Below are positions 5,367 to 63,676 of a stretch of 64,000 nucleotides of DNA, one piece after another (the first letter of the stretch is position 1; every line of letters begins with the position of its first letter). Source of the stretch: Candidatus Hydrogenedentes bacterium UBA2224. GTDB lineage: Bacteria; Hydrogenedentota; Hydrogenedentia; Hydrogenedentales; SLHB01. Below the pieces are notes generated by a model that was given only the letters and a program-made list of their open reading frames with translations, was not told the DNA's origin and ran no database searches. Location: positions 24,248 to 88,247 of the forward strand of contig DDYW01000021.1 in the NCBI GenBank assembly GCA_002348185.1, written 5' to 3'. Position numbers and translations under genes: made by a program.

Positions 5367-5392
5367 AACACTCGACAGATGGGGAGATTGCT

Positions 5393-6016
5393 GTGCCGCA
5401 CCGTGCAACGGTCCGCGTGTCGGCTTCGGACACGGCGGCGGCGGGCGGCGCAGAGCTTACACCAAGCGAAAAAGGGGACCAATCCGTGTTACCGACACAT
5501 CGCGACCGCCCGGGCTCGCGGCCTCGCAGAAGGCGGGAAGGCTTCACGCTGGTCGAAGTACTCGTGGCCCTTGCCGTCCTCAGCGTCGCCACCTGGATCA
5601 TCCTCTCCCTCTTCAGCAGCAGTCTCAAACTGGAACGGATCGCGCGCTCGACGCGCGTGGCGACCGACCTGGCCCGCGACCGGATGGCGGACATCCTCGC
5701 GCGGCCGGGCGCGTACGCCTGGCCCGCGGCCGACGCCATTACGGCTGAGACGGGGGCGCCGCTCAAACTCCTCAACGAATCCCCGCAAGAGGGCGCGTTC
5801 GCCGTGCCCGCCGTGCTGCCGGCCAGCCCGCTCGCGCGGAGTTCGGAGCAGGTCTTTTACGAGCGGTTCGGCTGGGAGGCCTTCGTTAAACAGCCTGCCG
5901 AGGGCCGCGGCTTTTACGAAGTGCTGGTCGTCGTGCGCTGGACGGAAGCGAACCGCCCCCAACAGGTCGTCCTGACCGGCAGCATTCCGGTGGCGATGAC
6001 GAAGGAGGCCTCATGA
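5393..6016 (+). CDS. type II secretion/pilus minor pseudopilin, GspI-like
   Basis: Prepilin cleavage/methylation motif G|FTLVEVLVALAVL. C-terminal YEVLVVVRWTEANRPQQVVLTGSI is GspI-like. GTG at 5393 has a GGGGAG box. An internal GTG (VLPTHRD...) would give a more typical 19-aa leader. Confidence 0.75.
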   Translation: MPHRATVRVSASDTAAAGGAELTPSEKGDQSVLPTHRDRPGSRPRRRREGFTLVEVLVALAVLSVATWIILSLFSSSLKLERIARSTRVATDLARDRMADILARPGAYAWPAADAITAETGAPLKLLNESPQEGAFAVPAVLPASPLARSSEQVFYERFGWEAFVKQPAEGRGFYEVLVVVRWTEANRPQQVVLTGSIPVAMTKEAS

Positions 6017-48379: not shown

Positions 48380-49265
48380 AATGCACCCTCTTGCGCGACA
48401 CGCGATACACGAGAAGCGTCAGGGCGAGGATGATGAGGAACAGGAGCCAGGCCATCGCGCAGGCATACCCCATGCGAAGGTATCGAAACGCGGAATTGTA
48501 GAGGAGCATGGTGTAGAACAGGGTCGAACGCGCGGGCCCGCCCGTGCCGTCGGTAAGCACGTAGGGCAGCGCGAACACCTGCAGCGCCCCGATCAGGCCC
48601 ATGACCACGTTGAAGAAGATCGCCGGCGACAGCAGCGGCAGGGTGATGTGGCGGAGCTTCGCCAACCACCGGGCGCCGTCGAGCTCCGCCGCCTCGTACA
48701 ACTGCTTCGGGATGTCCTGCAGTCCCGCGAGATAGATCACGACCGCATACCCCACGCCCCAGAGGCTCATGAGAACGATGGCGGGTTTCGACCACGCCGT
48801 TGATTGCAGCCAGATCGGCGCCTGCAGCCCCAACGGGTTCAACACCAGATTGAGCACGTAGTTCACGACACCGTATTCGCCGTTCAGCATCCACATCCAC
48901 AGAATGCCCAGCGCAACGAGCGGCGTAAGCGACGGCAGAAAGAAGATCGTCCGGTACATGGTCATGCCGCGGACGCCCGTGTTGAGCAGCAAGGCCAGCG
49001 TGATGGCCAGGACGGTCGCCAGCGGCAGAAAACACACCGCGAAATACAGCGTGTTGTAAAGCGATTTCCAGAATACCGGGTCCGTAACCAGTTCCTGGTA
49101 GTTCGCGCCGCCGACAAACACGGGCGGTTTCAGCACGGAGTAGTCGCAGAGGCTGTAGTAGAGCGACGCGCCGAGAGGATAGGCGGTGAACACGGCAAAC
49201 CCGGCTATCCACGGCGAGATGAACAGCAGCCCGTTGCGGAGGTTTCGCCGTTCGCGGTTCGTCAT
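48369..49265 (-). CDS. carbohydrate ABC transporter permease (MalF-like)
   Basis: YEAAELDGARWLAKLRHITLPLLSP EAA loop. It overlaps its neighbours on both sides. Confidence 0.9.
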   Translation of the reverse strand: MTNRERRNLRNGLLFISPWIAGFAVFTAYPLGASLYYSLCDYSVLKPPVFVGGANYQELVTDPVFWKSLYNTLYFAVCFLPLATVLAITLALLLNTGVRGMTMYRTIFFLPSLTPLVALGILWMWMLNGEYGVVNYVLNLVLNPLGLQAPIWLQSTAWSKPAIVLMSLWGVGYAVVIYLAGLQDIPKQLYEAAELDGARWLAKLRHITLPLLSPAIFFNVVMGLIGALQVFALPYVLTDGTGGPARSTLFYTMLLYNSAFRYLRMGYACAMAWLLFLIILALTLLVYRVSRKRVHYAG

Positions 49266-50713
49266 GGCGCGGCCTCCTGTTCCGCCTGTTCGCGTCGTTC
49301 GATGCTGCTGCGGGCACGTTCCCACATGCCCGACACGCGGTCCTGCACCTGCGTCACCGCTTCCCGGGGCGAGGCTTGGCCGAACATGACCTGGTCGAAG
49401 GCCGGGGTGATCTCATCGTTGTATTCGAACCATGTGCTCATCAGCGGCGCATAGAATGCGTTGGGGCTCTTCGCCAGTTCAATGAACAGCTCGATATACG
49501 GGTTGGGATGGCTGGCCAGAAACTCCGGGCTGACCGCTTTGAGCGGGGTGAACTTCTTGTGGCCCAGGTTGAGCAGTTCCAGGCCCTCCTGCGAACACAG
49601 GTAGCGGATGAACTCGAAGGCTTCATCCGGATGCCGCGCGCCCACCGGGATGCAGATCGAATCGCACTCCACCATGGCCACGTTGTCGAGCCCCGGCACC
49701 GCCGAGGGAAACGGCGCGGCGCCCCATTCGAGACCGGGCGCGTAGGTGTCGATGAAACTCGCCATCCACACGCCCTGGACGATCATCGCCACACGCTCGG
49801 TGAAGAAGGCGTTCTGGGGCGAGGCGAACTGCCCGGCAATCCCGCTCTGAAACCGGCGCAGCTCCGCCGCGCCGTATTTCTCGGGGTAACTCTGGATCCA
49901 TTCCCACGCGGCCAGGTTCTCGGGGGTGTCGAAGGTTACGCGCTCGCCGTCCCACAGCGCCCCCCCGAACCAGTAGCCCCACGACCAGTGCCACCATCCC
50001 GGTTCCGACGGCGTGAACCCCACCTGCACCAGGTGGCCTTGCTCGTCGTAACGGGTCAGTTTCGCGGCCATGGCATCGAGTTCGGCGAGGGTCCGGGGCG
50101 GCCGCTCCGGATCGAGGCCCGCCTCGCGAAACAGCCGTTTGTTGTAATGCAGCGCGGTCGTGGCCGGCGTCGTGGGCAGCCCGTACAGGGTGCCCCGGTA
50201 GGTGTTCTGTTCCAGGAACACGTCCAGGAACGTGTCGCGCGGCATGCCCGTCTTTTCCATGAAGGGTTCGAGGGGCATGAGGGCGCGTTTCTCGGCGAAC
50301 TGCGACAGTCCCGCGCTCCAGAGACCCACCAGGTCCGGCGGATCGCCCCCCGCGATCGCCACCAGCGCTTTCCGATCGATCTGGCTCATCGTGACCAGAT
50401 TGACGCGGATGCGGTCCTGTTTCTCATTAAACCGGTCCACGACCCGCTGGATGGCCTCGCCTTCAAAGCCGGTCCATTTCTCCCAGTAGGTGATCTGCAG
50501 GCGGCCGTCGACGTAATCGTCCTGCGGCTGAGGAATGATGACGTTGCAGCCGGAGAGGGCGCTGACGCTCACGAGCACCAGGCACGCTGCGACGAACCAG
50601 GACGATGTGACGCGGCGCACGGGCAGGATGCCGCATGGCCACCGGATCCCCGGCCTGTCTTGGTAGTCTTCCACGATCTCCCCCAAACCGGCACACGGAA
50701 AACATCCTGGCAA
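49262..50713 (-). CDS. ABC transporter extracellular solute-binding lipoprotein (family 1, sugar type)
   Basis: Lipobox VSALSGC, ITYWEKWTGFEG. The real start may be the GTG near 50620 rather than the ATG at 50713. Confidence 0.85.
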   Translation of the reverse strand: MPGCFPCAGLGEIVEDYQDRPGIRWPCGILPVRRVTSSWFVAACLVLVSVSALSGCNVIIPQPQDDYVDGRLQITYWEKWTGFEGEAIQRVVDRFNEKQDRIRVNLVTMSQIDRKALVAIAGGDPPDLVGLWSAGLSQFAEKRALMPLEPFMEKTGMPRDTFLDVFLEQNTYRGTLYGLPTTPATTALHYNKRLFREAGLDPERPPRTLAELDAMAAKLTRYDEQGHLVQVGFTPSEPGWWHWSWGYWFGGALWDGERVTFDTPENLAAWEWIQSYPEKYGAAELRRFQSGIAGQFASPQNAFFTERVAMIVQGVWMASFIDTYAPGLEWGAAPFPSAVPGLDNVAMVECDSICIPVGARHPDEAFEFIRYLCSQEGLELLNLGHKKFTPLKAVSPEFLASHPNPYIELFIELAKSPNAFYAPLMSTWFEYNDEITPAFDQVMFGQASPREAVTQVQDRVSGMWERARSSIERREQAEQEAAP

Positions 50714-51128: not shown

Positions 51129-52253
51129 ATGGCTGCCGTGAACCACCGTCTGCTGCTTGTGCTTGCTGTTGCGCTTACGTTCGTGCTGTTCCCGGGATGC
51201 GCGCCGAAGGAGACTCCGTCCGCCGAACCGTCCGGTGCGGGCGAGCCCGCGGCTCCGGCCGAACCCGCGCCACAGCCCGAAGCGGCCGCGCCGGCGCCCG
51301 CCGCGATCGGCGACCCGGTGGCGGCGATGGCGGAGCCGCCGGCCATGCCGAAAGGGTACGGTTCGAGCGCCGAGGTGATGCTGGCCATCGGGAACGGCGA
51401 TCTCGCACTGCTCGACGAGAACCCGCCGGTGCCGGAAGGCGTGAACGAACTCGCCGGGCTCGAGTATTGCAGCATCGACGGGACGTCTCTCAAACTCGAT
51501 CTGGCGTTGCCCGCCGAGGGCGACGGGCCGTTTCCCGGCCTGATCTTCATTCATGGAGGCGCCTGGGTCAGCGGCGAACGCGAGATCTACCATCTCTATA
51601 CGTACCATTTTGCGCAGCAGGGGTACGCGGCCGCCACGATGTCGTACCGGCTCTCCGGCCAGGCCAAGTTTCCCGCGGCGGTGCAGGACGTGAAATGCGC
51701 GGTCCGGTGGATGCGCGCGAACGCCGCCACGTACAACATTGATCCCGACCACATCGCCTTGATCGGTGGGTCGGCGGGCGGCCATCTGGCCATGATGGTG
51801 GGGTACACCGCCGACGTGCCGGAATTCGAGGGCGAAGGCGGCAACCCCGGCGTCAGCAGCGCGGTCCAGGCTGTCGTCAACTTCTACGGTCCCTATGACC
51901 TCACCGCGGAGATCGCGCAGAAATCGGACGATGTGCAGGGCTTCCTGGGCGCGACCTGGGAAGAGAATCCCGACCTGCATCTCAAGGCGTCGCCGATGCA
52001 CTACCTGAACGCGGGCGATCCGCCCACCCTGATCTTCCATGGCAGCATCGACGAGGTGGTGCCGATCGAACAATCCGAACGACTTGCGGCGCGCCTCGGC
52101 GAGCTGGGCATCCCCTGCGTCTTCGAACGGTTCGAGGGGTGGCCCCATACCATGGATCTCGCCCAGCCGGTCAACGAGCGCTGCCGCTGGTTCATGTACC
52201 GGTTTTTTGAAGCGCATCTCTCGCCGAAACCGGCCGCGGGCGCCCCGCAATGA
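51129..52253 (+). CDS. alpha/beta hydrolase (carboxylesterase/lipase-type) lipoprotein
   Basis: Lipobox LFPGCA, IFIHGGAW (HGG oxyanion motif), GGSAGGHLA nucleophile elbow. GGAGGAGG box upstream. Confidence 0.85.
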   Translation: MAAVNHRLLLVLAVALTFVLFPGCAPKETPSAEPSGAGEPAAPAEPAPQPEAAAPAPAAIGDPVAAMAEPPAMPKGYGSSAEVMLAIGNGDLALLDENPPVPEGVNELAGLEYCSIDGTSLKLDLALPAEGDGPFPGLIFIHGGAWVSGEREIYHLYTYHFAQQGYAAATMSYRLSGQAKFPAAVQDVKCAVRWMRANAATYNIDPDHIALIGGSAGGHLAMMVGYTADVPEFEGEGGNPGVSSAVQAVVNFYGPYDLTAEIAQKSDDVQGFLGATWEENPDLHLKASPMHYLNAGDPPTLIFHGSIDEVVPIEQSERLAARLGELGIPCVFERFEGWPHTMDLAQPVNERCRWFMYRFFEAHLSPKPAAGAPQ

Positions 52254-52398
52254 GGATGGCCGGCGCCGGTTTGCAGGGGTTTGACCCGGGTGTGTCGCCG
52301 ATGGCTACGCCATTCTCGCGGCGGTGCTGATCGACGGGTTTCTCGAACAGGCCGAATCCACTCGCGGTTTCATCAAGGGCTATTCGTAGGAGTGCACG

Positions 52399-53349
52399 AT
52401 GCGGGTACTGGTGATGGGGGCCGGCGCGCTCGGCTCCGCGATAGGCGGATTTCTTGCGAACGCCGGGCATGCGGTCGCGCTCGTCGGCCGCCCGGCCCAC
52501 ATGGGCGCCATCGCGCGGCAGGGACTGCGCATCACCGGCATCTGGGGCGACCATCGCGTCCGTACCCTGACCGCGGCGACAGGGGTTGAAGCCTTCCAGC
52601 CGGGCGGCTTCGATCTGATCCTCATCACCGTCAAATCGTACGACACGCGGGCGGCGGTGGAGGAGGTCGCGCCTCTCGTTGACGCCGACACCCTCGTCTG
52701 CTCGTACCAGAACGGCCTGGGCAACGCCGAGATCATCGCCGAAACCGTCGGGTGGCACAGAACGGTCGGGGCGCGGGCGATCTACGGGGTGTGGCTGCCC
52801 GAACCCGGCACGGCCGAAGTGACGGTCATCGCGAATCCCACCGCGCTGGGCGTGTATTCCCAGGACGCCCCGGCCGAGCGGGTCCGCGCGATTGCGCAGG
52901 CCATGGATGATGCAGGCGTGCCTACCGTCTACACGGACACGATCGCCACCGTGCTGTGGGGCAAAGTGGCGTACAACTGCGCCCTCAACCCGCTGTCCGC
53001 CCTGCTGGATGTGCCGTACGGGGCGCTGCTCGACACCGAACACACCCGCGCCATCATGCGCGACGTCATTCACGAACTGTATGCCGCGGGACGGGCCCTG
53101 GACGTGCGCCTGGAACCTGACTCGCCGGAGGCCTACGTCACCCTGCTGTTCGAGGGACTGATTCCCCCCACCGCAAAACACTATGCCAGCATGCGCGAGG
53201 ATTTCCGGTTGAATCGACGCACCGAGATCGACGCCCTGAACGGCGCGATCTGCCGTTACGCTGAGGCCCGGGGCGTGTCGTGTCCGGTCAATACGCTCCT
53301 GACCCGCCTCGTCCATGCCCGCGAACACCAGATGGGCGTCGTGGCATAG
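52399..53349 (+). CDS. panE: 2-dehydropantoate 2-reductase (ApbA/PanE family)
   Basis: MRVLVMGAGALGSAIGGFLA, VKSYD, QNGLGN, and the typical C-terminal SM..D......TEID..NG. Confidence 0.85.
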   Translation: MRVLVMGAGALGSAIGGFLANAGHAVALVGRPAHMGAIARQGLRITGIWGDHRVRTLTAATGVEAFQPGGFDLILITVKSYDTRAAVEEVAPLVDADTLVCSYQNGLGNAEIIAETVGWHRTVGARAIYGVWLPEPGTAEVTVIANPTALGVYSQDAPAERVRAIAQAMDDAGVPTVYTDTIATVLWGKVAYNCALNPLSALLDVPYGALLDTEHTRAIMRDVIHELYAAGRALDVRLEPDSPEAYVTLLFEGLIPPTAKHYASMREDFRLNRRTEIDALNGAICRYAEARGVSCPVNTLLTRLVHAREHQMGVVA

Positions 53350-53380
53350 GCCGGCTCGGGGATCCGGGGGCGCGGGCACT

Positions 53381-53460
53381 GTGGACGGTATGGACCCGAT
53401 GGACGTTCTTGCCTGAATGACGGCGAAGGGGTCGAACCACGGCGCCGTGTTGCCTTGACC
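53381..53460 (+). repeat. truncated copy of the mosaic repeat (3-unit array plus the left part of the core)
   Basis: gtggacggt atggacccg atggacgtt, then cttgcctgaatgacggcgaaggggtcgaaccacggcgccgtgttgccttgaccccc, alignable to 50818-50882. Confidence 0.7.
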
Positions 53461-53511
53461 CCCCCTTCCCGCGGGCGCAAAATAGAGCCGAAGGGTTTCG
53501 GGTGCGATGCC

Positions 53512-54483
53512 ATGACGATTCAATGCGAATTGTGTCCCAAGAACTGCCTGATTGCTCCGGGACAGAGCGGCGAATGCCGGATTCGCGTGAACCTCGACGG
53601 CCGGCTGGTCGCGGTCACGTACGGGCGGCCCTGCGCGGTGCATGTGGACCCCATCGAGAAGAAGCCCCTGTTTCACGTGCTGCCGGGGAGCACGATCCTG
53701 TCGCTGGCCACGGTGGGCTGCAACCTTCACTGCAAGAACTGCCAGAACTGGGAGATTTCTCAGGAGAACCCCGAGAATCTGCCCGCGAAGGAACTGGCCC
53801 CCGACGATATTCCCGGTCTGGCCCGGCAGCACGCGTGCCAGTCCATCGCGTACACGTACACCGAGCCGGTCGTCTTTTATGAATATACGATGGACGGGTG
53901 CAGGCAGGCGCATGACGCGGGGCTCACCACCGTGCTGGTTACGGCAGGCTACATCAATCGCGAACCGTTCGAGCGTCTGGCGCCGTACGTCGATGCGGCC
54001 AACATCGATCTCAAAGCCATGTCCGACGCGTTTTACCGGGAGATCTGCGAGGGGAGCCTCGCGCCGGTCCTGAGCACCCTGGAGAGCGCGAAAGCGGCGG
54101 GCATCTGGGTCGAAGTCACCAACCTGGTGATCCCCACCCTGAACGATTCGGAAGCCGAGCTCCGGAACCTCTGCCAGTGGGTCGCGGCCAACCTGGGACG
54201 CGAGACCCCGCTCCATTTTTCGCGGTTCCATCCCGCGTACCGTATGAAGAACCTGCCGCCGACCCCGTCGGAAACCCTGGACCGCGCGCGGGAGATCGCC
54301 CGGGCGGAAGGGTTGTATTATGTGTATATTGGAAACGTGACGCGGGCGGACGCGGAAAACACGTACTGCTCCGGGTGCGGCGCCTTGTTACTTGAACGGC
54401 AGCGCTACACGATTCTGGAAAACAGGCTGCGCGACGGAGCGTGCCCTTCGTGCGGCACGAAAGCACACGGATTATGGACCTAG
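53512..54483 (+). CDS. amrS: AmmeMemoRadiSam system radical SAM enzyme
   Basis: CELCPKNCLIAPGQSGECRIR N-terminal Cys motif, DPIEKKPLFH, GCNLHCKNCQNW (CxxxCxxC), C-terminal CSGCG...CPSCG. Confidence 0.9.
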   Translation: MTIQCELCPKNCLIAPGQSGECRIRVNLDGRLVAVTYGRPCAVHVDPIEKKPLFHVLPGSTILSLATVGCNLHCKNCQNWEISQENPENLPAKELAPDDIPGLARQHACQSIAYTYTEPVVFYEYTMDGCRQAHDAGLTTVLVTAGYINREPFERLAPYVDAANIDLKAMSDAFYREICEGSLAPVLSTLESAKAAGIWVEVTNLVIPTLNDSEAELRNLCQWVAANLGRETPLHFSRFHPAYRMKNLPPTPSETLDRAREIARAEGLYYVYIGNVTRADAENTYCSGCGALLLERQRYTILENRLRDGACPSCGTKAHGLWT

Positions 54484-54671
54484 CGCGACGCACATTCATG
54501 TACACGGTCCTGACGGCCGCGGCCGCTGTGCTCTGTCCGGTGTTGCGCCGGGCGCGTCGGGTGCTCGTTCGCGTCCGGTATGCGGAACGGCCGCGGCGCG
54601 GCGAATGCCCGGCCGTCCTTGCGCCGTTGACGCCGGAGGAGACGGCGCGTCCCGCCAAATGGGCGGGGTAG
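54474..54671 (+). CDS. candidate small ORF (65 aa) with an RR-hydrophobic N-terminus, bridging amrS and the Memo-AMMECR1 gene
   Basis: MDLARRTFMYTVLTAAAAVLCPVL... The third codon positions are mostly G/C as in real genes here. The ATG overlaps the amrS stop. No homology recognised. Confidence 0.3.
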   Translation: MDLARRTFMYTVLTAAAAVLCPVLRRARRVLVRVRYAERPRRGECPAVLAPLTPEETARPAKWAG

Positions 54672-54707
54672 GCCGCGCCCGGAACACCGAGGTTGGGGAA
54701 AGGACCT

Positions 54708-56312
54708 ATGGCAACGCATCCGTACAGGGCCGGGGCCGGGATCATCCTGGCCGTGGCGGCGGCGGCCATCGCCGTCTGGATGGCGCGCCGCGAAGGACTC
54801 GAAGAGGCGCCGCGCGAACCCCCGCAGCAGGTGCAGGAGGCCGAGATGCCCGAACAAGCTTCACACCCGAAGGCCGTGTTTGACTCGCCTCTGGCGGGGC
54901 GATGGTATCCGGCCAGCCCGCCGGTGCTGACGGAGATGCTGGATGAGCAGCTCGCGGCCGCGGAACAGAGGCCGCTGGACGGCGTCTGCGCGCTCATTCT
55001 GCCGCACGCGGGCTACCAGTACAGCGGTCCGGTGGCGGCGTACGGATTGAAGGCGGTGCGGGCCCGGCGCTATGCCCGCATCGTAATCCTGGGCCCGTCG
55101 CACCGCGTGCCGATGCGCGGGTACGCCAGCGTGCCCGGGGCCACGCATTACCGCACGCCCCTGGGCGAGATCCCGCTCGATGTGGCGTTCATCGAGGCGC
55201 TGCTCGAACACGGCATGTTTCGGCAGGTCGCCCAGGTCGAGGACCTCGAACACAGCGTTCAGATCGAAGTGCCGCTGATCCAGCATGCGCTGGGGGCGAC
55301 GCCGCTCGTGCCCATTGTGGTGGGGCATCTCACGCTGGCGGAGTCGCGCGAGATGGCGCGCATCCTGCGCGGCCTGGTGGATAACGACACCCTCGTGCTC
55401 GTGAGCAGCGATTTCACTCATTACGGGCCCAACTACGGGTACCTGCCGTTTAAGGACGACATCCGCGCGAATCTCGAACGTCTCGATATGGCGGCGTGGA
55501 ACGCCATCGAGTCCAAGGCGCCCGGGGTTTTTGAAACCTGGGTCGAGGACAGCGGCGCCACCATCTGCGGGACCTGCCCCATCCTGGTCCTGCTCTCGAT
55601 GCTCCCCGAAGACGCCCGGCCCCAGCTGCTCAAATACGACACGTCGGGCGCCATCACGAGCGACTACGAAAACTCCGTGAGCTATCTCAGCATCGCCTTT
55701 ACCGGCGCCTGGCGGGAAGGCGGCCTCATGTCCGACAGCGCCGGCACCGCGCTGCCCCTTTCGGAGGAGGATAAGGAACGTCTGCTCCGGCTTGCCCGCG
55801 AAACCCTGCACACCTACGTCGCCGCGGGGAAAATGCCCACCCCCGAAGAGCTGGGGGTTGAGATCACCCCTGCCATGAGCCAGACCATGGGCGCGTTCGT
55901 CACGCTGCACGCGCACGGGAGGCTCCGCGGATGCATTGGCGAGATTGAGCCCCGCCGGCCCCTGTATCAGGCCGTCATGGCCAACGCTATCAACGCCGGA
56001 CTCAAGGACTATCGGTTCCCGAGCGTCACGGCGGACGAACTCCCCGAACTGGACTTCGAGATCTCCGCCCTGACGCCCCCACACCCCGTCGACGGTCCCG
56101 AACGCATCGTTATCGGCCGTCACGGCATGACCGTCGAGAAAGGCGGCCGCCGCGCCGTGTTCCTGCCCCAGGTCGCCCCCGAACAGGGCTGGGACCGCGA
56201 CACCACCCTCAACCATCTCTGCATGAAGGCGGGGTTGCCTCCGGACGCGTGGCGGCAAGGCGCCGCCTTCACGGTGTTTGAAGCCGTCGTGTTTGGCGAG
56301 GAGCGAGGATGA
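54708..56312 (+). CDS. membrane-anchored fusion of AmmeMemoRadiSam protein B (Memo family) and protein A (AMMECR1 family)
   Basis: TM helix GAGIILAVAAAAIAVWM. Memo part: ALILPHAGYQYSGPVAAYG, ILGPSH, SSDFTHYG. AMMECR1 part: GAFVTLHAHGRLRGCIGE, VFLPQVAPEQGW. GGGGAAAGGA box before the ATG at 54708. Confidence 0.9.
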   Translation: MATHPYRAGAGIILAVAAAAIAVWMARREGLEEAPREPPQQVQEAEMPEQASHPKAVFDSPLAGRWYPASPPVLTEMLDEQLAAAEQRPLDGVCALILPHAGYQYSGPVAAYGLKAVRARRYARIVILGPSHRVPMRGYASVPGATHYRTPLGEIPLDVAFIEALLEHGMFRQVAQVEDLEHSVQIEVPLIQHALGATPLVPIVVGHLTLAESREMARILRGLVDNDTLVLVSSDFTHYGPNYGYLPFKDDIRANLERLDMAAWNAIESKAPGVFETWVEDSGATICGTCPILVLLSMLPEDARPQLLKYDTSGAITSDYENSVSYLSIAFTGAWREGGLMSDSAGTALPLSEEDKERLLRLARETLHTYVAAGKMPTPEELGVEITPAMSQTMGAFVTLHAHGRLRGCIGEIEPRRPLYQAVMANAINAGLKDYRFPSVTADELPELDFEISALTPPHPVDGPERIVIGRHGMTVEKGGRRAVFLPQVAPEQGWDRDTTLNHLCMKAGLPPDAWRQGAAFTVFEAVVFGEERG

Positions 56313-59300
56313 GACCGGGCCGCGCCGCGGTCATATTCTCGCTGGGGTTCTTCGCCATCGCGGCGCAAACGCTGCTGTTTCGCCAGTTCCTGACCGCATT
56401 CGAGGGCAATGAACTCGCCCTCGGGGTGTTTTTCTGTTCGTGGCTGCTCTGGGTCACCGTGGGTGCGTGGCTGGCCCGCGCCGTGCGTCCCCTGGCCGCT
56501 GCGCTGAGCGGGCGTTTCCGGGGCATCGCGCTCCTCTATCTGCCCGCGTTCGTGGTTCAATACGTTCTGATCGGCCAAGCGCGGGAACTCGCCGGGGTGG
56601 CGCCCTACGAGCAGTTCCCGCTGCTGGCCATGATTGGCGTGTGTGTTGTTGCGAACAGCCCGGTCAGCCTGCTCACCGGCGCGCTGTTCACGTGGGCCTG
56701 CCGCTGGGCCGCCGGCGCCGGGGAGGACTCGCCGGACGTTGCCCTGACTCCCGCCCGGGTGTACATGCTGGAAGCGTTGGGGGCCGCGGCGGGCGGAATC
56801 TGGGCTACGCTGTGGCTCGCGAACGGTGTGCCGGTCGAGACCGTGTTTCTGCTGTCGGCCATCGTCGTGGTTGCCGCGGGGCTTCAGCCAAACCTCGGAG
56901 GCCTGGTGCGCGCCGCCGGCGTGGCCGCCCTGGCGCTGGCGATCGTCCTGGGCGCGGGCGAGCTTTGGTCCGCGCACACCCACCAGCGGCAATGGGGCCG
57001 TCTCATTCCCGGGGGGTACGAGGGCCGCGTCGCTACCGCGCAAGGCGAGTACCTCTACGGCGAACACGACGGGCAGTTCACCGTCATGACCTGGGGCAGC
57101 GTGTGCGAGACGCCGTTTACGCTCTCGCAGGGCGCGGAAGATGCCGCCGCCATCCTGCCGCAATGCCCGCAGGCGCGCCGCGTGCTTGTGCTGGGCGCGG
57201 GCGCCTATCCGCTGTGCACCGTGCTGTGCAGTCTGCCGCAGATTGAGCGGGTCGCCTGGTTCCATCCGGATCCCGCGTATCCGCCCCGGCTGGCGCAGTT
57301 GCTGCGCGAGCATGGGCACACCGTGCCCGAGAAGCTTCTGCCCTACGGCAGCGATGCGCGCACCTGGCTCCAGCACGCCGCTGATCAATACGATGTGGTG
57401 ATCCTGAGCCTGCCGGACACCACGACGCTCGTGCTGAACCGGTATTCGACCGCCGAGTTTTTCGCCGAAGTAAAGCGCGCCCTGTCGCCCGGCGGCGTGC
57501 TGGCCACGCGCGTGCCCGGCGGCGCCAACTACCTCGCCAGCGAATCCGCCGTTCTGGGGCTGTCGATGATGACGACCCTCGAAGCCGCGTTCCGGAACAC
57601 CGCGCTCAAACCCGGTGAATCTTCCTGGTTTTTCGCGTCGGACGGCGACAGCCTGATGAACGCGCCGATGCCCTTGGCCCGCCGCTGGATGGGCATCGAA
57701 GGCGCGGAAGCCTGGTATCCCGCCGAAGCTGTGCGCGATTTTTACCGGAGAGGCCGCGTGATGCGGCAACTCGACGCGTACCAGGCCGCCCGCGCCTCCG
57801 TGCCTTCCGACGTGCTGCTCAACACCGACCACAACCCCCGCGCGCTGCTTTTCGGCATCCTGCTGGAACTCCGGCGCGCCGGGTTGCGCCCGGCGGAGAC
57901 CGTACCGCCGCTGCTCTGGGGCGGCGTCTATCTTGTGGCCGCCGGGCTGCTCGTGGCCGCCGCGGGCCGTATCGTGTTTCTCGTCAAACACGGCGGCTCG
58001 GGCGTCCCCGCCGTCTTTGACACGCACCTGCTGATCGCAACGACCGGCCTGGCCAGCATGGCCCTGACCACCGTGCTCCTGTTTTTTTATCAGACGCGGC
58101 ACGGGGCCCTGTTTCTGCTGATCGGCCTCATCGCCGCGTTGGTGATGTTCGGCGCCTGGCTGGGAAGCCTGGTCCTGGGTCGGCTCCTGGCGCGTTGGGG
58201 CGCCGAACCCCGCCTGGCCCTGCCGGGATTGCTCGCGATACATGCCCTCGCGCTCAGCGGACTTCTGTGGATGGGCCCGGACGCGTCCGTGGGGCTCTTT
58301 CTGGCCGCGTTTTTCGTGTGTGGGCTGCTTACGGGGGCCTATTTTCCGGTGGGAGCGCTGCGTCTGGCGAATGCGGGCCAGCCGCCCGACGCTTCCGGCG
58401 CGCGGCTCGAAGCGTTTGACCACCTCGGCGGCGCGGCGGGGGCCGCCCTCACCGGGCTGGTGTTCTTGCCGTTTTTCGGCGCACCCCGCACGCTGGCCCT
58501 GCTCGCGGGCTGTCTCGCGCTGAATGTCCCCCCGCTGTTGCTGGGACGGCGTGCACGCCGGGTGCGTCCCGCGCCGGGGGACCGGTTTGACCGGCTGGTC
58601 CGTCCGGCCGCGTACACGCTGGCGACCCTCGCGGCGCTCGTGATCACGGCATCCAACATACTCGCGGTGTCCGGGACGGCACGGGAATCGGCGCAACTGC
58701 TTGACGAGGTCCGTTTGCTGGCCGGACCGGCCGCCCCGCTCGAGTCGGTGTCCACCACGCTCCCGGATGGCGCGGCCTTTACGTATTTCAAGGAAACCGG
58801 ACCCGAGGGCGAGACCGCGGGGTATCTGTTCGACACGCGCGTGCTCGCGGGCGATGTTTATGGATACGGCGGCCCGCTGGTGCTGGCCGTGTCCGTCGAT
58901 CCGGCGGGCATCGTGCGCGATTACCGCATCCTGCACTCCCTGGAAACCCCGGTGTATCTCGATTTCGTGCGGTCCTGGCGGCAGGAGTTGGTCGGGAAAA
59001 ACATCTTTGAAGCGCAACCCTTTGAGCAAGTCGACGCGCTGAGCGGGGCCACACTGACCTGCAACGCGCTGATGGCCGCCCTCGAGCAGGCCGGCCACCG
59101 GTTTGCGCTCGACGTGCTCGGCAAATCAGTGGCCCCGGGAAGCCCGGGCAGGCGGCCCGCTGGCGAGTGGACCGGCTTGGCCTGGCTCGCCGGATTGTCT
59201 CTGGCCGCCATGCTCGCGCGCCGCTGGCCCAACCCCTGGGTGCGTCGGGGCATCCTCGCGGCATCGCTGATCATCTGCGGCGGACACTTCAATGTCCAGT

Positions 59301-59866
59301 ACTCCACCCAGCAGGCCGCCAGCCTGGCGACGGGCGCTCTGCCCCCCTGGACCCTGTCCGCGCCGGTATTCCTGGTCCTCGTGCTGCCCCTGCTCACGGT
59401 TCTGTTCGGGAACTTCTATTGCGGCTACCTGTGCCCGTTCGGGGCGGCGCAAGAGGCCATGGAAGAGGTGACGCGGGGAACCGTGGCCGTCGACCCGTCC
59501 AAAGAGGTCTGGCGCTACGCGCGCGCCGTAAAATACCTGCTGCTCTTCCTGCTCGCCCTGCTGTATGCCGTGCACCGCGACGCCGCCGTGCTTCAGGCCG
59601 ATCCGTTGATCACCATTTTCAGCGGCATGCCGGGCCGGTTCGTGCTTTATCTGGGTCTCGGGACGCTGGTGCTTTCCCTGACGTTTCGCCGGTTCTGGTG
59701 CCGGAATCTCTGTCCGGCCGGGGCATTTCTGTCGCTGTGCAACGGCGTTCGCGTGTTCCGGCGGCTTCGTCCTGCCGTCCAGCCCGCGAAATGTCCCCTC
59801 GGCGTGCGCACGGGAACCGAATTCGACTGCATTTGCTGCGACAGGTGCCGCCATGAAAGCCGCTGA
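56309..59866 (+). CDS. 1185-aa fusion: polytopic membrane domain + spermidine-synthase-like Rossmann domain + second TM block + FMN_bind domain + NapH/NosR-type polyferredoxin
   Basis: FFAIAAQTLLFRQFLTAFEGNELALGV (membrane spermidine-synthase-like N-terminus). VLVLGAGAY...DVVILSLPD...LSPGGVLA. GYGGPLVLAVSVD...VDALSGATLT (flavinylation motif, about 59042-59053). YCGYLCPFG and WCRNLCPAG (CX3CP), terminal CICCDRC. ATGA overlap with the upstream stop. Confidence 0.85.
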   Translation: MRPGRAAVIFSLGFFAIAAQTLLFRQFLTAFEGNELALGVFFCSWLLWVTVGAWLARAVRPLAAALSGRFRGIALLYLPAFVVQYVLIGQARELAGVAPYEQFPLLAMIGVCVVANSPVSLLTGALFTWACRWAAGAGEDSPDVALTPARVYMLEALGAAAGGIWATLWLANGVPVETVFLLSAIVVVAAGLQPNLGGLVRAAGVAALALAIVLGAGELWSAHTHQRQWGRLIPGGYEGRVATAQGEYLYGEHDGQFTVMTWGSVCETPFTLSQGAEDAAAILPQCPQARRVLVLGAGAYPLCTVLCSLPQIERVAWFHPDPAYPPRLAQLLREHGHTVPEKLLPYGSDARTWLQHAADQYDVVILSLPDTTTLVLNRYSTAEFFAEVKRALSPGGVLATRVPGGANYLASESAVLGLSMMTTLEAAFRNTALKPGESSWFFASDGDSLMNAPMPLARRWMGIEGAEAWYPAEAVRDFYRRGRVMRQLDAYQAARASVPSDVLLNTDHNPRALLFGILLELRRAGLRPAETVPPLLWGGVYLVAAGLLVAAAGRIVFLVKHGGSGVPAVFDTHLLIATTGLASMALTTVLLFFYQTRHGALFLLIGLIAALVMFGAWLGSLVLGRLLARWGAEPRLALPGLLAIHALALSGLLWMGPDASVGLFLAAFFVCGLLTGAYFPVGALRLANAGQPPDASGARLEAFDHLGGAAGAALTGLVFLPFFGAPRTLALLAGCLALNVPPLLLGRRARRVRPAPGDRFDRLVRPAAYTLATLAALVITASNILAVSGTARESAQLLDEVRLLAGPAAPLESVSTTLPDGAAFTYFKETGPEGETAGYLFDTRVLAGDVYGYGGPLVLAVSVDPAGIVRDYRILHSLETPVYLDFVRSWRQELVGKNIFEAQPFEQVDALSGATLTCNALMAALEQAGHRFALDVLGKSVAPGSPGRRPAGEWTGLAWLAGLSLAAMLARRWPNPWVRRGILAASLIICGGHFNVQYSTQQAASLATGALPPWTLSAPVFLVLVLPLLTVLFGNFYCGYLCPFGAAQEAMEEVTRGTVAVDPSKEVWRYARAVKYLLLFLLALLYAVHRDAAVLQADPLITIFSGMPGRFVLYLGLGTLVLSLTFRRFWCRNLCPAGAFLSLCNGVRVFRRLRPAVQPAKCPLGVRTGTEFDCICCDRCRHESR

Positions 59867-60116
59867 CGTCCTGTTTCTGGTCTGCGTGGCCGCGGTGGCG
59901 GCGCTGTTTGTGGCCGCGACCCTGGCGCATACCGAAACGGCCGCCTCGCCCCCGGCCGCCCCGGCGGCGCCCGGCGGAACCGGCCGTCCCCGCGACCTCG
60001 ACCTCGAGCGTATCCGCGAAATGATCGAGCGCGGCGACTTGTCCGGACGTGAGGCGGAGTTTTACCGCGAAGCGCCCGCCGGACCGCAAAACGAAACCGC
60101 CTCCCCACCGGAGTGA
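59853..60116 (+). CDS. small single-pass membrane protein (87 aa)
   Basis: N-terminal helix VLFLVCVAAVAALFVAATLA, a Pro/Ala linker, then DLERIREMIERGDLSGREAEFYRE. It overlaps the upstream stop by 14 nt. Confidence 0.5.
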   Translation: MKAADVLFLVCVAAVAALFVAATLAHTETAASPPAAPAAPGGTGRPRDLDLERIREMIERGDLSGREAEFYREAPAGPQNETASPPE

Positions 60117-60142
60117 GGAGGCGGCTCAGGTCCGGATTCAGG

Positions 60143-62266
60143 TCACAGGATGCCGAGGGCGGCGTTGATCACCATCTGCACATCAACGGCATTTACGCCA
60201 TCCAGGTCATTCACGTCTGCGTCGCGGCCCTCGATGTCCAGCCCCAGCGCGGCGTTGATCACGAGCTGCACATCGACGGCATCCACGTCGCCGTCGCGGT
60301 CGATGTCGCACGCGGGCACGCTCACGTCGAACACGCGGGTCAGGGCGTTGTTGGCCGGGTTCGGGTCGGCCGGGACATCGCCTTCCGAGTCGGCGATGGC
60401 CGTCACTGAATAGTCTTCGCCCTTGGGAAGCGTTGCCGGCCGCGGCACCACATAGCTCGCACCGGCGTCCAGGGCGGGTACGGGGTACGTCAACGGCGTG
60501 GCGTCGCCCGTCAGTTCGATGGAAAGCACGGAGGGCCCGGCATTCCCCAGGCCCACGTTCAGAACGGTCACCTGGATCGTGAATTCTTCGTCCGGCAGAG
60601 GCGCCGCGGGAAGCAGCGTCACGGCGCTGACCGCGAGATCGGGCAGCCGGATGAGTTCGTCGGCGCCCATGTCGTAATCCGAGCCGTCGCCCGGCTCAGG
60701 CGGTCCCGTCGGGCCGTCATTGAGCCCGTCGTATCCCCGGGCGTCGCCGTCGATGTCCGTCGTGACGGCGCCGTAGGTGCTCTCACTGGCGTCGCGGCCC
60801 GTGTCCAGGCACGGCGACGTGTCCTGCAGGCGCCAGTTCAGCACTTCGTATGCGCGCGGCGCCGTGGCCGCCCCGCCCCGGGTGACGTCCGCCCAGACGG
60901 TAATGGTGGCGGCATCGTTGGCCACGATCAGGTACCCGCAGGGCGGGTCATACTGATCGACCGGCGCGACCTGCAGGAGTTGGCCCGCCAACGTGCCGGG
61001 CAGGAACGCGCCCGACTCGACGGTCACCGTGGACTGGCAGGTGGCGGCATCGTAGGCCAGCGCGCTGATCGTGCCGGAGTATCCTGGAAGAAACAGAGGA
61101 TCCGCGTCGATGTTCGCGGTGCCGGCCAGGCCGCCCGCCACGTCGTTGTAACTGTACGAGCGTGTCGACGCGTAGAAATCCATCTCATTGGGCGTGCCGT
61201 CGTCTTTGAGGCCTTCCCAGAGGATGCAGTTGGTCATGCGGAAGGCCGTGCTTTTGCCATAGAGGTTGCCGCCGGAAAACGCGGAACCGGCATGACACCA
61301 GTTCCGGCGCAGCGTGCAGTTCGTCATAATCAGATCGCCGTCGGTCCACTTGGAAATTGCCCCGCCGTAGAGCGAGGTGTTGCCGGTAAACACGCAGTTC
61401 AGGATCGTCAAGTCTCCGTCCTCGCTCGAAATTCCTCCGCCATGGCCGCTGATCTCGTTGCCCACAAACCGGCATCCGGAAAACGTGGCCGACGAATCGC
61501 CCGCCATATAGACCCCCGCGCCATCCTGCCACGCCTCGTTGCTGGCGAAGGTGCAATCACTGAACGTCAGGTCGGTCGAGGCGCCCTGGGCATTCACACC
61601 GCCGCCGTTGTCGTCAGCTTCATTGCCCGCGAAGAGGCACCGCACAATCGTGGCGGTGCTGTTCGCGGCGTACAAGCCGCCGCCGCCGGAATCCGTGGCC
61701 TCATTGTCTAGAAACCGGCAATCGCGTATTACCGCAGACGACCCGGAGAGGCCCAGACCCCCGCCACTGCTGCCCGCATTCGCCTGAAATGTGCAGTTTG
61801 AGACGGTGGGACTGGTGTTCTCGCATTGCATCCCGCCGCCCCACGACGTCGTCGTGGGCACGCAGTGCGTGATCGTAAAACCATCGATAATAGCGTTATT
61901 CGCCCCCGTTACCCCGCGGCGGGCATTCTCGCCGTCAATGATCGTCACATTGGCCTGCGGATCGCGCAGATCAAACTGGTCCGCGCTCTCGCTGCCCGCA
62001 AACCCGCCGTAGATCGCCACGTCGGTGGCCATGGCCACCACCGGACTGGCCGCACTGGTGTAGGTACCCGCGGCCACCCACACCTGGCCGCCGCCCGGGC
62101 CCGCCGCGTCCACCCCGCTTTGAATGTTTGTGAACGCCGTGGCCCAGGTGGTTCCGTCCTCCACGCCCGATACGTTGTCCGCATCGACCAGCCAAATCGC
62201 CCCCGATGCCGACAGAGAGACCGCCATTGCCGCCGCCAGACACACCGTCCATGCCGCTGCCTTCAT
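60143..62266 (-). CDS. secreted right-handed parallel beta-helix protein with a CARDB-like domain and a C-terminal dockerin-type repeat pair
   Basis: Signal peptide MKAAAWTVCLAAAMAVSLSASG. Repeated NCxFxxNxA..GGG coils. C-terminal DIDRDGDVDAVDVQLVINAALG / DVNDLDGVNAVDVQMVINAALG. Confidence 0.85.
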   Translation of the reverse strand: MKAAAWTVCLAAAMAVSLSASGAIWLVDADNVSGVEDGTTWATAFTNIQSGVDAAGPGGGQVWVAAGTYTSAASPVVAMATDVAIYGGFAGSESADQFDLRDPQANVTIIDGENARRGVTGANNAIIDGFTITHCVPTTTSWGGGMQCENTSPTVSNCTFQANAGSSGGGLGLSGSSAVIRDCRFLDNEATDSGGGGLYAANSTATIVRCLFAGNEADDNGGGVNAQGASTDLTFSDCTFASNEAWQDGAGVYMAGDSSATFSGCRFVGNEISGHGGGISSEDGDLTILNCVFTGNTSLYGGAISKWTDGDLIMTNCTLRRNWCHAGSAFSGGNLYGKSTAFRMTNCILWEGLKDDGTPNEMDFYASTRSYSYNDVAGGLAGTANIDADPLFLPGYSGTISALAYDAATCQSTVTVESGAFLPGTLAGQLLQVAPVDQYDPPCGYLIVANDAATITVWADVTRGGAATAPRAYEVLNWRLQDTSPCLDTGRDASESTYGAVTTDIDGDARGYDGLNDGPTGPPEPGDGSDYDMGADELIRLPDLAVSAVTLLPAAPLPDEEFTIQVTVLNVGLGNAGPSVLSIELTGDATPLTYPVPALDAGASYVVPRPATLPKGEDYSVTAIADSEGDVPADPNPANNALTRVFDVSVPACDIDRDGDVDAVDVQLVINAALGLDIEGRDADVNDLDGVNAVDVQMVINAALGIL

Positions 62267-62500
62267 CGTAGATCCCTTTCCCTGACTCGCAGATCCCCTC
62301 GTGTGAGCCGCACAGATCCCCAAGATGCCCCTCTAATCCACCGGAAGAGTATCACAGATGGCGCAAAAAGCGAACACGGTTTTGCCTGACCACCTGGCCC
62401 ACTGGGAGTTCGAAGGGCAGCCGTGCGACGATGGCACGCTTGTGCTTGTGAAGGCCGAAACGCTATTCTCGCCACGACCCGATGGACAGGAGAATCTACC

Positions 62501-63676
62501 ATGAACTACCGACCCGTTACCCTGGCCCTCATGGCGCTGGCCCTCGCGGCGCCGCTCGCATCCGCCCAGCAGAATGTCCGGCCCATGTTGCCGAAGACGC
62601 TCTATGCCGCGCCGGGGATTGAGTGCAATCTCTATTTCGACAACGCGGTCCTCGTTCTCGATGCGGACGGTTTTGCCTTCGACGCCAATTGCGGGAAAGG
62701 CGTCCAGTTCGCCGAGTGCTGGCGTTTCGTGCCGGTGGCGGACGACGTGGGGGATTACGGCCTCACGCTCACGGTGCGCAACGCCGAAAACGCGGTGGTG
62801 GCCGAGGGCGCGACGGTCGTCCGGGTCGCCCCGGCAAGCGCTGGCGCGGGCAGGAACGTCTCGCTTCTGCTCATCGGCGACAGCCTCACCAACGCCTCGG
62901 TGTATTCGCAGCATCTGCTCGATCTGTGCGCGGCCGAGGGCAATCCCGCCCTGACGCTCGTCGGCTCCCACGGGCCCGGCGAAGTGCTCGGCCCCAACCG
63001 TCATGAAGGCTACGGCGGGTGGACCGCGAGACGGTTCGCGACGCATTGGACCGGCATCGCCCGCACCGGCGACCTCGCCAAACGCGGCAGCCCCTTTCTC
63101 TACGAGACCGGCGACGGCCGCCGCGAACTCGATTTCCAGCGGTACTGCAACGACGTCAATGGCGGGCACGTCCCCGATTTCGTCACCATCTTCCTCGGGT
63201 GCAACGACACCTTTGGCGCCACCGACGACACCATCGAGAGCCAGATCGACGACATGTTTGCCCATATGGACGCGCTCATCGCCATGATCCGCGCGGTTTC
63301 GCCCGATCTGCCCATCGGACTGATCCAGCCGGTGCCGCCCACCGCGTCGCAGGACGCCTTCGGCGCGAATTATGCCTCCGGGCAGACCCGGTGGCAGTAT
63401 CGCCGTAACCAGCACCGTGTGGTCGAGCGCATGGAAGAGCGCTACGCCGCGATGCCCCACGTGTGGCTCGTGCCCGCGTACATCAGCCTCGACGGCGTGC
63501 ACAATTTCCCGGCAGCGCCGCAGCCGGTCAATGCGCGGAACGCCGCAACCGTTGTGCGCTCGTACGACAGCGTGCATCCCGCCGAGACCGGCTACCGTCA
63601 GATCGGCGACAGCATCTACTGCTGGTTGAAACACCTGCTCGCGGAAGACGCTCAGGCTCCGGAGACCGCCCCATGA
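62501..63676 (+). CDS. SGNH/GDSL-type hydrolase, secreted
   Basis: Signal peptide ...LAAPLASA. LLLIGDSLTN (block I), GCND (block III), DSVHPAETGY (block V DxxH). GGACAGGAGAA box upstream. Confidence 0.8.
   Translation: MNYRPVTLALMALALAAPLASAQQNVRPMLPKTLYAAPGIECNLYFDNAVLVLDADGFAFDANCGKGVQFAECWRFVPVADDVGDYGLTLTVRNAENAVVAEGATVVRVAPASAGAGRNVSLLLIGDSLTNASVYSQHLLDLCAAEGNPALTLVGSHGPGEVLGPNRHEGYGGWTARRFATHWTGIARTGDLAKRGSPFLYETGDGRRELDFQRYCNDVNGGHVPDFVTIFLGCNDTFGATDDTIESQIDDMFAHMDALIAMIRAVSPDLPIGLIQPVPPTASQDAFGANYASGQTRWQYRRNQHRVVERMEERYAAMPHVWLVPAYISLDGVHNFPAAPQPVNARNAATVVRSYDSVHPAETGYRQIGDSIYCWLKHLLAEDAQAPETAP

Follow-up and report, generated by a model that had tools for sequence, protein, structure and literature searches.

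From archaea to humans, Memo and AMMECR1 are conserved proteins, with links to cell motility, to cancer and to the AMME contiguous-deletion syndrome. To our knowledge, neither has an agreed molecular function, and the bacterial trio that they form with a radical S-adenosylmethionine (SAM) enzyme (rSAM) is a named system, AmmeMemoRadiSam, for which we know of no chemistry. The subject here is an AmmeMemoRadiSam operon on contig DDYW01000021.1 of Candidatus Hydrogenedentes bacterium UBA2224, of which a stretch of 64,000 nucleotides was analyzed (the window; coordinates count from its first letter). The operon includes the gene for a large multi-module membrane protein, termed BIG, and the operon link between BIG and AmmeMemoRadiSam is the main new finding.

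Parts of BIG resemble well-described proteins. In NosR and NapH, the CX3CP motifs and the Cys tail lie inside the cell, with the FMN_bind domain outside in NosR, and both proteins have two ferredoxin-type Fe-S motifs. Transporters of the major facilitator superfamily (MFS) consist of two six-helix halves, each beginning and finishing in the cytoplasm. In spermidine synthase (SpeE), the acidic residue of the GGG[DE]G loop selects decarboxylated SAM (dcSAM). Flavinylated NapH-like proteins (NosR, PceC/RdhC, NapH, MauN and CcoG) have been described as modular electron conduits to extracytosolic enzymes (Meheust et al. 2021, PMC8238504); Memo, AMMECR1 and spermidine-synthase terms are absent from the accessible portions of the text and supplements of that paper. 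The gene neighborhood of AMMECR1, a dioxygenase-like protein and rSAM has been known since 2007, as has the fusion of Memo to AMMECR1 (PMC2034487), and RNA base modification was proposed as the function of these proteins (PMC2034487, PMC4075521). A literature search found AmmeMemoRadiSam named only in passing and nothing on fused MFS/spermidine synthases.

The AmmeMemoRadiSam-BIG operon

The operon consists of the following genes:

53455..54483, + strand: AmmeMemoRadiSam rSAM (TIGR04337, 400 bits against a cut-off of 220; PF04055)
54708..56312 (alternative start 54693), + strand: fused Memo (protein B) and AMMECR1 (protein A), 534 aa (TIGR04336, TIGR04335, Pfam Memo and AMMECR1)
56309..59866, + strand: BIG, 1185 aa, ATG start, with the N- and C-terminus both predicted to be cytoplasmic
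59853..60116, + strand: 87-aa open reading frame (ORF) with one transmembrane (TM) helix and the conserved motif PRDLDLERIREMIERGDLSGREAEFY (PRDxD...LSxxEAxxY), related by blastp to C-terminal extensions of BIG homologues

Like the known AmmeMemoRadiSam system, the window has matches to TIGR04335, TIGR04336 and TIGR04337 above their cut-offs, directly upstream of BIG. The fused Memo-AMMECR1 scores 203 bits with TIGR04336 (cut-off 26) and 173 bits with TIGR04335 (cut-off 99). What the window adds to the system as described earlier is an export or anchor sequence on Memo-AMMECR1 and a dedicated membrane redox/transport subunit. The BIG start codon shares four nucleotides (ATGA) with the stop of Memo-AMMECR1 and is preceded by a purine-rich, Shine-Dalgarno-like GAGGAGCGAGG, while the 87-aa ORF overlaps the BIG stop codon by 14 nt. 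The probable true start of the rSAM is the ATG at 53512 ('MTIQCELCPKNC...'). At its N-terminus (53512-53600), and in its homologues, a conserved C-x2-C-P-x2-C-x7-G-x-C precedes the radical-SAM core, where it probably forms an additional site for a metal or cluster.

Gene context was surveyed in 80 fetched loci by tblastn and ORF clustering. The order rSAM, Memo-AMMECR1, BIG, with short or 4-nt overlaps, is found in 22 of the 25 informative loci, from at least seven phyla, as well as in the window. Clustering of the ORFs of 46 loci left rSAM and Memo-AMMECR1 as the only protein families conserved around BIG; the remaining recurrent clusters were antisense shadow ORFs, ApbE, and a small ORF corresponding to the 87-aa ORF of the window. 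Even lone NosR-like halves adjoin the rSAM/Memo-AMMECR1 trio in two loci (L035 and L042).

From N- to C-terminus, BIG has a block of TM helices, a SpeE-like Rossmann domain, a second TM block, an FMN_bind domain and a NapH-like domain with two CX3CP motifs and a Cys cluster. This is the order proposed in an earlier sequence-only reading of the window, and the ORF and every motif quoted there are present as given. Absent from that reading were the coupled AmmeMemoRadiSam genes upstream, the export signal on Memo-AMMECR1 and the small ORF downstream.

Relatives that have the MFS-like and SpeE-like parts and lack the NosR-like half (MFS/SpeE-only) keep the same company. Four of the five examined adjoin TIGR04337 and/or Memo-AMMECR1 genes. 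Two of these relatives pass the model for fused MFS/spermidine synthases, NF037959 (cut-off 40), with 88 bits (P0100) and 42 bits (P0102), and both adjoin AmmeMemoRadiSam genes.

Predicted export signals on the partner proteins

The Memo-AMMECR1 of the window carries a hydrophobic N-terminal segment (54729-54782) that could serve as a signal or an anchor. Structures of human Memo1 match it only from residue 61 and archaeal AMMECR1 from residue 352, so the first ~55 residues are an addition. A hydrophobic segment is present in all 23 full-length Memo-AMMECR1 proteins (at least 450 aa) from BIG-bearing loci, all of which, apart from that of L034, are encoded directly beside BIG. Lipoprotein signals were found in five loci (ISGC in L006, VGSC in L007, LAGC in L014, AASC in L035 and LSAC in L040) and Sec-type signals in four (L010, L020, L023 and L043). 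Of 116 homologues from databases, whose genes were called independently, 109 carry the segment and 18 a lipobox, in a list that is saturated by the signal-bearing type and offers no cytoplasmic, BIG-unlinked fusions for comparison. By the net-charge rule, an N-in/C-out orientation is favored in 90 of the 109; plain counts of Lys plus Arg (K+R) give a less clear answer (49 vs. 36). The case for export comes from the lipoboxes of the orthologues and the net-charge statistics, not from the window protein itself.

The rSAM proteins of BIG-type loci begin directly at CxxCPxxC and have no signal, and the window rSAM is accordingly read as cytoplasmic. In the MFS/SpeE-only loci, by contrast, all four rSAM proteins examined have an N-terminal twin-arginine-type signal (e.g., ISRRTAIGIGVGGAVGLAGA in L086 and MDRREMLRLMLCSGLALGGAAAVGLTGC in L088), and the Memo-AMMECR1 proteins of four such loci carry a lipoprotein signal.

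L082 8411-9739; L084 9540-10667 (- strand); L086 8571-9989; L088 4863-6014: TIGR04337-type rSAM proteins with a twin-arginine-type signal, one of them with a lipobox

Thus, in about 22 loci the redox "wire" formed by the NosR-like half is present and the rSAM lacks a signal, whereas in four loci the wire is absent and the rSAM has a twin-arginine-type signal. One reading of this pattern is that the wire may connect the inner and outer parts of a membrane-split system.

Between the MFS/SpeE-only gene and the rSAM, L082 (8178-8438) and L086 (8307-8564) share a conserved, His-rich, two-helix ORF of 85-86 aa (…HLPLIVLVLAHVVPAAY…), which shows no relation to the 87-aa ORF in the window and might encode a small redox or heme-binding subunit. 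Directly upstream of the MFS/SpeE-only gene of L082 (2207-5875) lies a gene whose 1222-aa product ends in a ResA/TlpA-type thioredoxin domain and could be an alternative periplasmic redox partner. The MFS/SpeE-only and AmmeMemoRadiSam cluster of L084 has three genes of the heptosyltransferase family and one for an MsbA-like ABC exporter beside it (618-5749), a hint of an envelope context that may be coincidental.

The NosR-like redox half

The C-terminal half of BIG consists of these parts:

58739..59116, + strand: predicted periplasmic FMN_bind domain (PF04205, 44 bits), which aligns with 8p2b and RnfG
59162..59743, + strand: NapH/NosR-like five-helix membrane domain (PF12801, 49 bits) with two CX3CP motifs on the predicted cytoplasmic face
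59792..59848, + strand: cytoplasmic C-x11-C-x2-C-x2-C (C1162, C1174, C1177 and C1180), invariant in 78 sequences, in a Lys/Arg-rich tail

Both Pfam matches clear their cut-offs of 22, PF04205 (FMN_bind) with 44 bits and PF12801 (Fer4_5) with 49 bits over two stretches. The flavin mononucleotide (FMN) would be attached to T915 of DALSGAT (59051-59053), a predicted flavinylation site of ApbE, as already suggested from the sequence alone. G913, A914 and T915 never vary in the 78-sequence family alignment, D909 hardly does, and position 912 holds Ser or Thr, which fits the ApbE target motif D-x-x-[ST]-G-A-[TS] (PMC8238504). DALSGAT aligns residue by residue with HSGAT of 8p2b, a solved covalent-FMN domain, and with GST of RnfG, and the family profile picks up structures of RnfG and NqrC as well. 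The Thr of SGAT is thus likely to be the covalent FMN site. Five related loci have an ApbE homologue next to the operon: in L011 and L031 it follows directly downstream, whereas in L030, L002 and L032 it is close by.

L011 13887-14903; L031 13884-14525; L030 3604-4488; L002 3-401; L032 5363-6115: ApbE homologues (tblastn)

The first CX3CP motif spans C1038-P1043 (59420-59437) and the second (WCRNLCPAG) C1131-P1136 (59699-59716). Their residues C1038, C1042, P1043, C1131 and C1135 are invariant, and the CICCDRC cluster (C1174-C1180) is part of the Cys4 motif, a probable single [4Fe-4S] site judging from its spacing and invariance. BIG has in common with NosR and other flavinylated NapH-like proteins an anchor helix, a predicted periplasmic FMN_bind domain with an ApbE-type Thr, five helices with two CX3CP motifs on the cytoplasmic side, and a Cys-rich tail. 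It differs from them in having one Cys4 motif instead of two ferredoxin-type motifs, in sitting behind a 14-TM MFS/SpeE module, and in having AmmeMemoRadiSam genes as its partners in place of nos, nap or rdh. No nos, nap or rdh genes were found in domain scans of the window or among the conserved neighbors. Matches to the NosR model NF046105 (56 bits vs. 1000) and the NapH model TIGR02163 (29.6 bits vs. 213) stay far below threshold.

These partial matches, and the fact that NapH-like flavinylated proteins serve many reductases (PMC8238504), allow BIG to be seen as a stand-alone quinol dehydrogenase of the NosR/NapH/PceC type that feeds a periplasmic reductase, with the MFS/SpeE part as a passenger and the AmmeMemoRadiSam link incidental. 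The three informative loci in which BIG has no AmmeMemoRadiSam genes nearby would fit such a role. However, no reductase gene is conserved in the neighborhood, where rSAM and Memo-AMMECR1 are the only conserved families; the 4-nt gene overlaps are kept across phyla; and the MFS/SpeE-only relatives hold the AmmeMemoRadiSam link without any NapH part. A stand-alone dehydrogenase is for these reasons considered unlikely.

Membrane topology and the MFS-like part

The remainder of BIG, apart from the SpeE-like domain, is made up of these parts:

56315..56881, + strand: MFS-like N half, TM1-6, with conserved R25, W45, N116, P118, Y152, E155 and G158
56894..56950, + strand: TM7, exit to the periplasm (hydropathy 2.17; model helix 196-213; alternation of loop charges)
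57914..57985, + strand: TM8, return to the cytoplasm, with a near-invariant R554 (hydropathy, model and loop charges)
58016..58549, + strand: MFS-like C half, TM9-14, with invariant D704, G707 and P721
58550..58600, + strand: Arg-rich cytoplasmic linker (7 Arg in 17 residues), where split homologues divide
58601..58672, + strand: TM15, the anchor helix ahead of the FMN domain (hydropathy, model and loop charges)

An AlphaFold2 model built with the 78-sequence alignment has a mean predicted local distance difference test score (pLDDT) of 88.8 and a predicted template modeling score (pTM) of 0.86. Together with hydropathy, its helices give the layout TM1-7, a soluble domain (residues 235-530), TM8-15, FMN_bind (811-936), TM16-20 and a short C-terminal tail. 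The orientation was predicted by the positive-inside rule, counting K+R per loop across all 78 aligned sequences. Loops 58-69, 130-147, 560-569, 626-636, 685-699, 748-764, 973-976 and 1035-1065 and the tail are rich in K+R (1.1-3.2 per short loop, 10 in the tail), while loops 28-35, 91-104, 172-175, 596-604, 654-660, 723-726, 994-1013 and 1090-1107 are poor, and the two kinds alternate perfectly along the chain. If the rich loops are cytoplasmic, the CX3CP motifs and the Cys tail are predicted to lie inside, and FMN_bind and the SpeE-like domain outside. For FMN_bind, which is preceded by the Arg-rich loop and TM15, this agrees with the outward orientation expected in the sequence-only reading; the Rossmann domain, which had been placed in the cytoplasm, is predicted by the loop charges and the MFS repeat to be periplasmic.

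The repeat was detected with hhalign, which aligned TM1-6 (residues 5-181) in parallel with TM9-14 (residues 572-732) at a probability of 92.9% (E = 3.7e-7). TM7 and TM8, both strongly hydrophobic, form a hairpin between the six-helix halves with a domain of ~300 residues in its outer loop. This parallel, MFS-type repeat independently agrees with the loop charges in the prediction that the SpeE-like domain shares the periplasmic side with FMN_bind. In Pfam, MFS_1 (PF07690) stays below its cut-off (29.6 bits < 33.4; E = 4e-7). The membrane parts are not visible in a Foldseek search with the whole model, where the list is saturated by SpeE chains. The model of residues 530-790 alone (pLDDT 91.5) matched mostly MFS transporters in the PDB, weakly, with a query-normalized TM-score of ~0.5 over ~200 columns and E values of 0.01 or above. 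The label "MFS-like" is thus supported, but not proven. BIG resembles the 14-TM (DHA2-type) MFS transporters in its two predicted six-helix repeats with two extra helices in between and in the modeled fold of TM9-14, which is similar to that of MFS halves. It differs from them by the large folded domain in the TM7-TM8 periplasmic loop and by a sequence similarity below threshold.

The spermidine-synthase-fold domain

57011..57898, + strand: SpeE-fold domain (N-terminal beta domain and Rossmann domain), predicted to be periplasmic (profile, Foldseek and topology)

BIG has the two-domain SpeE fold. Its family profile matches the SpeE structures 1uir/3anx with an E value of 2e-22, and Foldseek aligned it with SpeE chains (1uir, 3o4f and 2o06) at target-normalized TM-scores of 0.6-0.67 over ~280-300 columns. 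The Rossmann motifs are RVLVLGAGAY (residues 290-300), YDVVILSLPD (361-370) and ALSPGGVLATRV. Compared with SpeE of Thermus thermophilus (1uir/3anx), E. coli (3o4f) and humans (2o05), BIG has the same fold and, like them, a conserved Asp at the end of each of the strands beta-2, beta-3 and beta-4. D321, D362 and R378 are invariant in the family, and D349, R351, N377 and T381 nearly so. The adenosyl-binding-type residues G296/G298, D321, D349 and D362 are kept, and R351 and R378 are family-specific arginines.

The residues for aminopropyl transfer have been lost. In the alignment with Thermus SpeE, the GGGEG loop becomes G296-A-G298-A-Y (GAGAY), and the position of its acidic residue, 299, is occupied by Ser in 23 sequences, Ala in 20, Gly in 13, a gap in 9 and Thr in 5, with no Asp or Glu among the five commonest states. 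The catalytic Asp at the end of beta-4 (IID-x-x-DP) corresponds to S367 in BIG and to Asn in 43 sequences, Ser in 10, Asp in 9, Ala in 4 and Leu in 4. Unlike SpeE, the domain is thus characterized by G-x-G-[SAG] and by Asn or Ser, and it is membrane-embedded and predicted to face the periplasm. An aminopropyltransferase function was considered for BIG and rejected, as both the dcSAM-selecting acid and the catalytic Asp are lost and the domain is predicted to be periplasmic. The adenosyl-type residues that remain, taken with this loss and the predicted location, suggest a ligand-binding or hand-over domain. We infer that it would bind or present SAM or an adenosyl-bearing product and would not be a polyamine synthase.

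The sequence-only reading had described an aminopropyl- or methyl-transferase-like fold; the SpeE fold was found, while aminopropyltransferase activity is unlikely with both key acids gone. It had also implied a division of labor, with catalysis by a cytoplasmic transferase domain and redox chemistry by a flavinylated module outside. The fold and the Gly-rich loop are consistent with such a transferase, and SAM and dcSAM are, by general knowledge, cytoplasmic metabolites. The flanking loops, however, set the domain on the side opposite the Lys/Arg-rich face, TM7 and TM8 are single hydrophobic helices between two six-helix repeats with cytoplasmic ends, and neither the dcSAM-selecting acid nor the catalytic Asp is present. 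A cytoplasmic transferase is accordingly regarded as quite improbable.

More improbable still is a genuine membrane-bound polyamine aminopropyltransferase that is coupled to polyamine export and redox-regulated. The MFS-like domain could export a polyamine, and there are weak matches to PRK03612 and PRK00811. However, these scores are far under their cut-offs (36.9 < 472 and 30.1 < 260, respectively), as is that for TIGR00417 (12.6 < 249.55). In addition, the catalytic Asp position is Asn or Ser in 53 of the 78 sequences, the acid of GGG[DE]G is not seen across the family, and the domain is predicted to lie in the periplasm, where there is no dcSAM. Pfam Spermine_synth (PF01564) is likewise below its cut-off (15.4 < 22.9). 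The proteins of NF037959 and PRK03612 share with BIG a seven-helix N-terminal block, the SpeE fold, further helices and the NR[YF]xTxEF motif; unlike NF037959, to which it scores 18.9 bits against a cut-off of 40, BIG has the extra NosR-like half.

The BIG family and its fifth module

In a search of a collection of 5.8 billion proteins, BIG was found to have ~90 clusters of full-length homologues (1150-1400 aa, query coverage 99-100%, identity 29-92%), named either "4Fe-4S binding protein" or "spermidine synthase" in the databases. The clusters come from metagenome-assembled genomes of Hydrogenedentes, Planctomycetes, Verrucomicrobia, Lentisphaerae and Elusimicrobia, and the nearest named relative (72%) is from Candidatus Hydrogenedentes. 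When genomes were scanned at one per species, carriers of the gene turned up in Hydrogenedentota, Pirellulales, Sedimentisphaerales, Phycisphaerae, Kiritimatiellae, Lentisphaerae, Verrucomicrobiota, Nitrospirales, Thermodesulfobacteriota, Desulfomonilaceae and Myxococcota and on one Thiohalocapsa chromosome; at least 25 species-level genomes hold it in one frame. Among the carriers is Thiohalocapsa sp. PB-PSB1. The BIG architecture, which had stood out in the sequence-only reading as an unusual combination in a single chain, is therefore that of a widespread family, neither rare nor unique. The matches to NCBIfam are partial and far below threshold (NosR, NapH, RnfG and membrane-bound polyamine aminopropyltransferase models).

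Each half also exists separately elsewhere, as had been supposed, according to both the homologue search and the locus comparison. In two Nitrospirota (L040 and L039), the halves are encoded by separate adjacent genes, which in L040 encode 684 and 405 aa and overlap by 14 nt. The split point is the Arg-rich loop equivalent to BIG residues 748-764, and the linker at 58550..58600 is on this account read as a natural boundary between the modules. An assembly error or frameshift that fused two ordinary genes, for which such separate halves could be cited, is next to impossible, since ~90 independent full-length homologues from varied assemblies and phyla read through the junction in a single frame and the AlphaFold2 model is confident along the whole chain.

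Most family members have five modules, not the four first counted. In these homologues the fifth module is fused to the C-terminus, whereas in the window it is the separate small ORF; the helices of BIG itself number 7 + 8 + 5 = 20. By blastp, the 87-aa ORF is related to a C-terminal extension of roughly 100 residues in long-form homologues of 1290-1390 aa, with E values down to 1e-16, and the module is a separate small gene also in L001, L002, L019, L023 and L029. These matches identify the ORF as the detached fifth module of BIG, separated by gene fission. No relative of it was found in Pfam, NCBIfam or the PDB. Its motif would lie outside the cell, because its helix comes after the cytoplasmic Cys tail.

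A proposed role for BIG

BIG is best described as a fusion of two module types, each known already, that is tied to AmmeMemoRadiSam and falls outside NosR, NapH, SpeE and NF037959 by the membership tests of those families. From its sequence, model and gene context, we consider that it may serve as membrane subunit in a variant of AmmeMemoRadiSam that faces outward, away from the cytoplasm, at a probability of about 0.5. Electrons would cross the membrane through the NosR-like half, between the Fe-S/CX3CP side in the cytoplasm and the covalent FMN in the periplasm. That FMN would serve the metal or redox enzyme Memo-AMMECR1, which bears an export signal in this operon, and the signal-less rSAM may feed the wire at its cytoplasmic end or be coupled to it there. 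The MFS-like domain and the outward adenosyl-binding-type domain may move or present SAM or an adenosylated product, which is the weakest step.

Spelled out in full, the proposal is a more tentative one. BIG would be a transmembrane unit that lets AmmeMemoRadiSam chemistry proceed beyond the cytoplasm, with a wire leading from the cytoplasmic rSAM or another donor to the exported Memo-AMMECR1 and an MFS/SpeE half that exports and presents SAM or an adenosylated intermediate. This complete scheme is rather doubtful. The twin-arginine-type signals on the rSAM proteins of the wire-less sister systems would imply that radical-SAM chemistry takes place in the periplasm, for which we know of no precedent.

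Several observations weigh against an outward-facing system. In three loci (L004, L016 and L028), BIG is present without AmmeMemoRadiSam genes nearby. The hydrophobic segment of the window Memo-AMMECR1 has one Arg before it and two after, which leaves its orientation ambiguous by Lys/Arg count alone. No ApbE was found in the 64-kb window by tblastn with E. coli ApbE/Ftp, and the topology of BIG is a prediction. We know of no periplasmic SAM pool and of no MFS exporter of SAM. Finally, Burroughs et al. in 2019 reportedly linked Memo contexts to isoprenoid modification, and may have described part of the system or its membrane partner already.

Neighboring genes

Just upstream of the operon lies a ketopantoate-reductase (PanE/ApbA) family gene (52399-53349, + strand), which is not conserved in related loci. 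Downstream, a convergent gene (60143-62323, - strand) encodes a right-handed beta-helix protein of 726 aa that combines CARDB and dockerin domains and has a weak NosD-type match. This protein lies outside the system and is probably secreted and active on polysaccharides. Further away are genes for a solute-binding protein (SBP_bac_1, 49262-50713, - strand), a BD-FAE/alpha-beta hydrolase esterase (51129-52253, + strand) and a GDSL lipase-like protein (62423-63676, + strand). The solute-binding protein, the esterase, the GDSL protein and the beta-helix protein suggest a carbohydrate-degrading lifestyle.

Long ORFs also run antisense to these genes and those of the operon, on the - strand at 56120-59098 (992 aa), 54861-56258 (465 aa) and 52192-54231 (679 aa). 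They have no family matches and are conserved merely as shadows of the sense genes, as is typical of high-G+C DNA. A promoter and terminator scan of 52000-60500 gave nothing informative.

Implications

A coupled membrane partner that combines a conduit, a transporter-like part and an adenosyl-type domain, along with the export signal on Memo-AMMECR1, suggests redox reactions on the membrane's outer face in preference to RNA modification, at least in this branch of the system. The proposals of RNA base modification assume a cytoplasmic system and do not fit one that is read as outward-facing. If the chemistry is indeed periplasmic, this would point to a component of the cell envelope, of lipid or isoprenoid type, and not to RNA, as the substrate of Memo and AMMECR1.

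With BIG, the catalogued ApbE-flavinylated systems of extracytosolic electron transfer gain an uncharacterized class, and the finding also suggests that the name of the large "fused MFS/spermidine synthase" family is wrong. For Memo and AMMECR1 themselves, a conserved and translationally coupled BIG constrains what their function can be.

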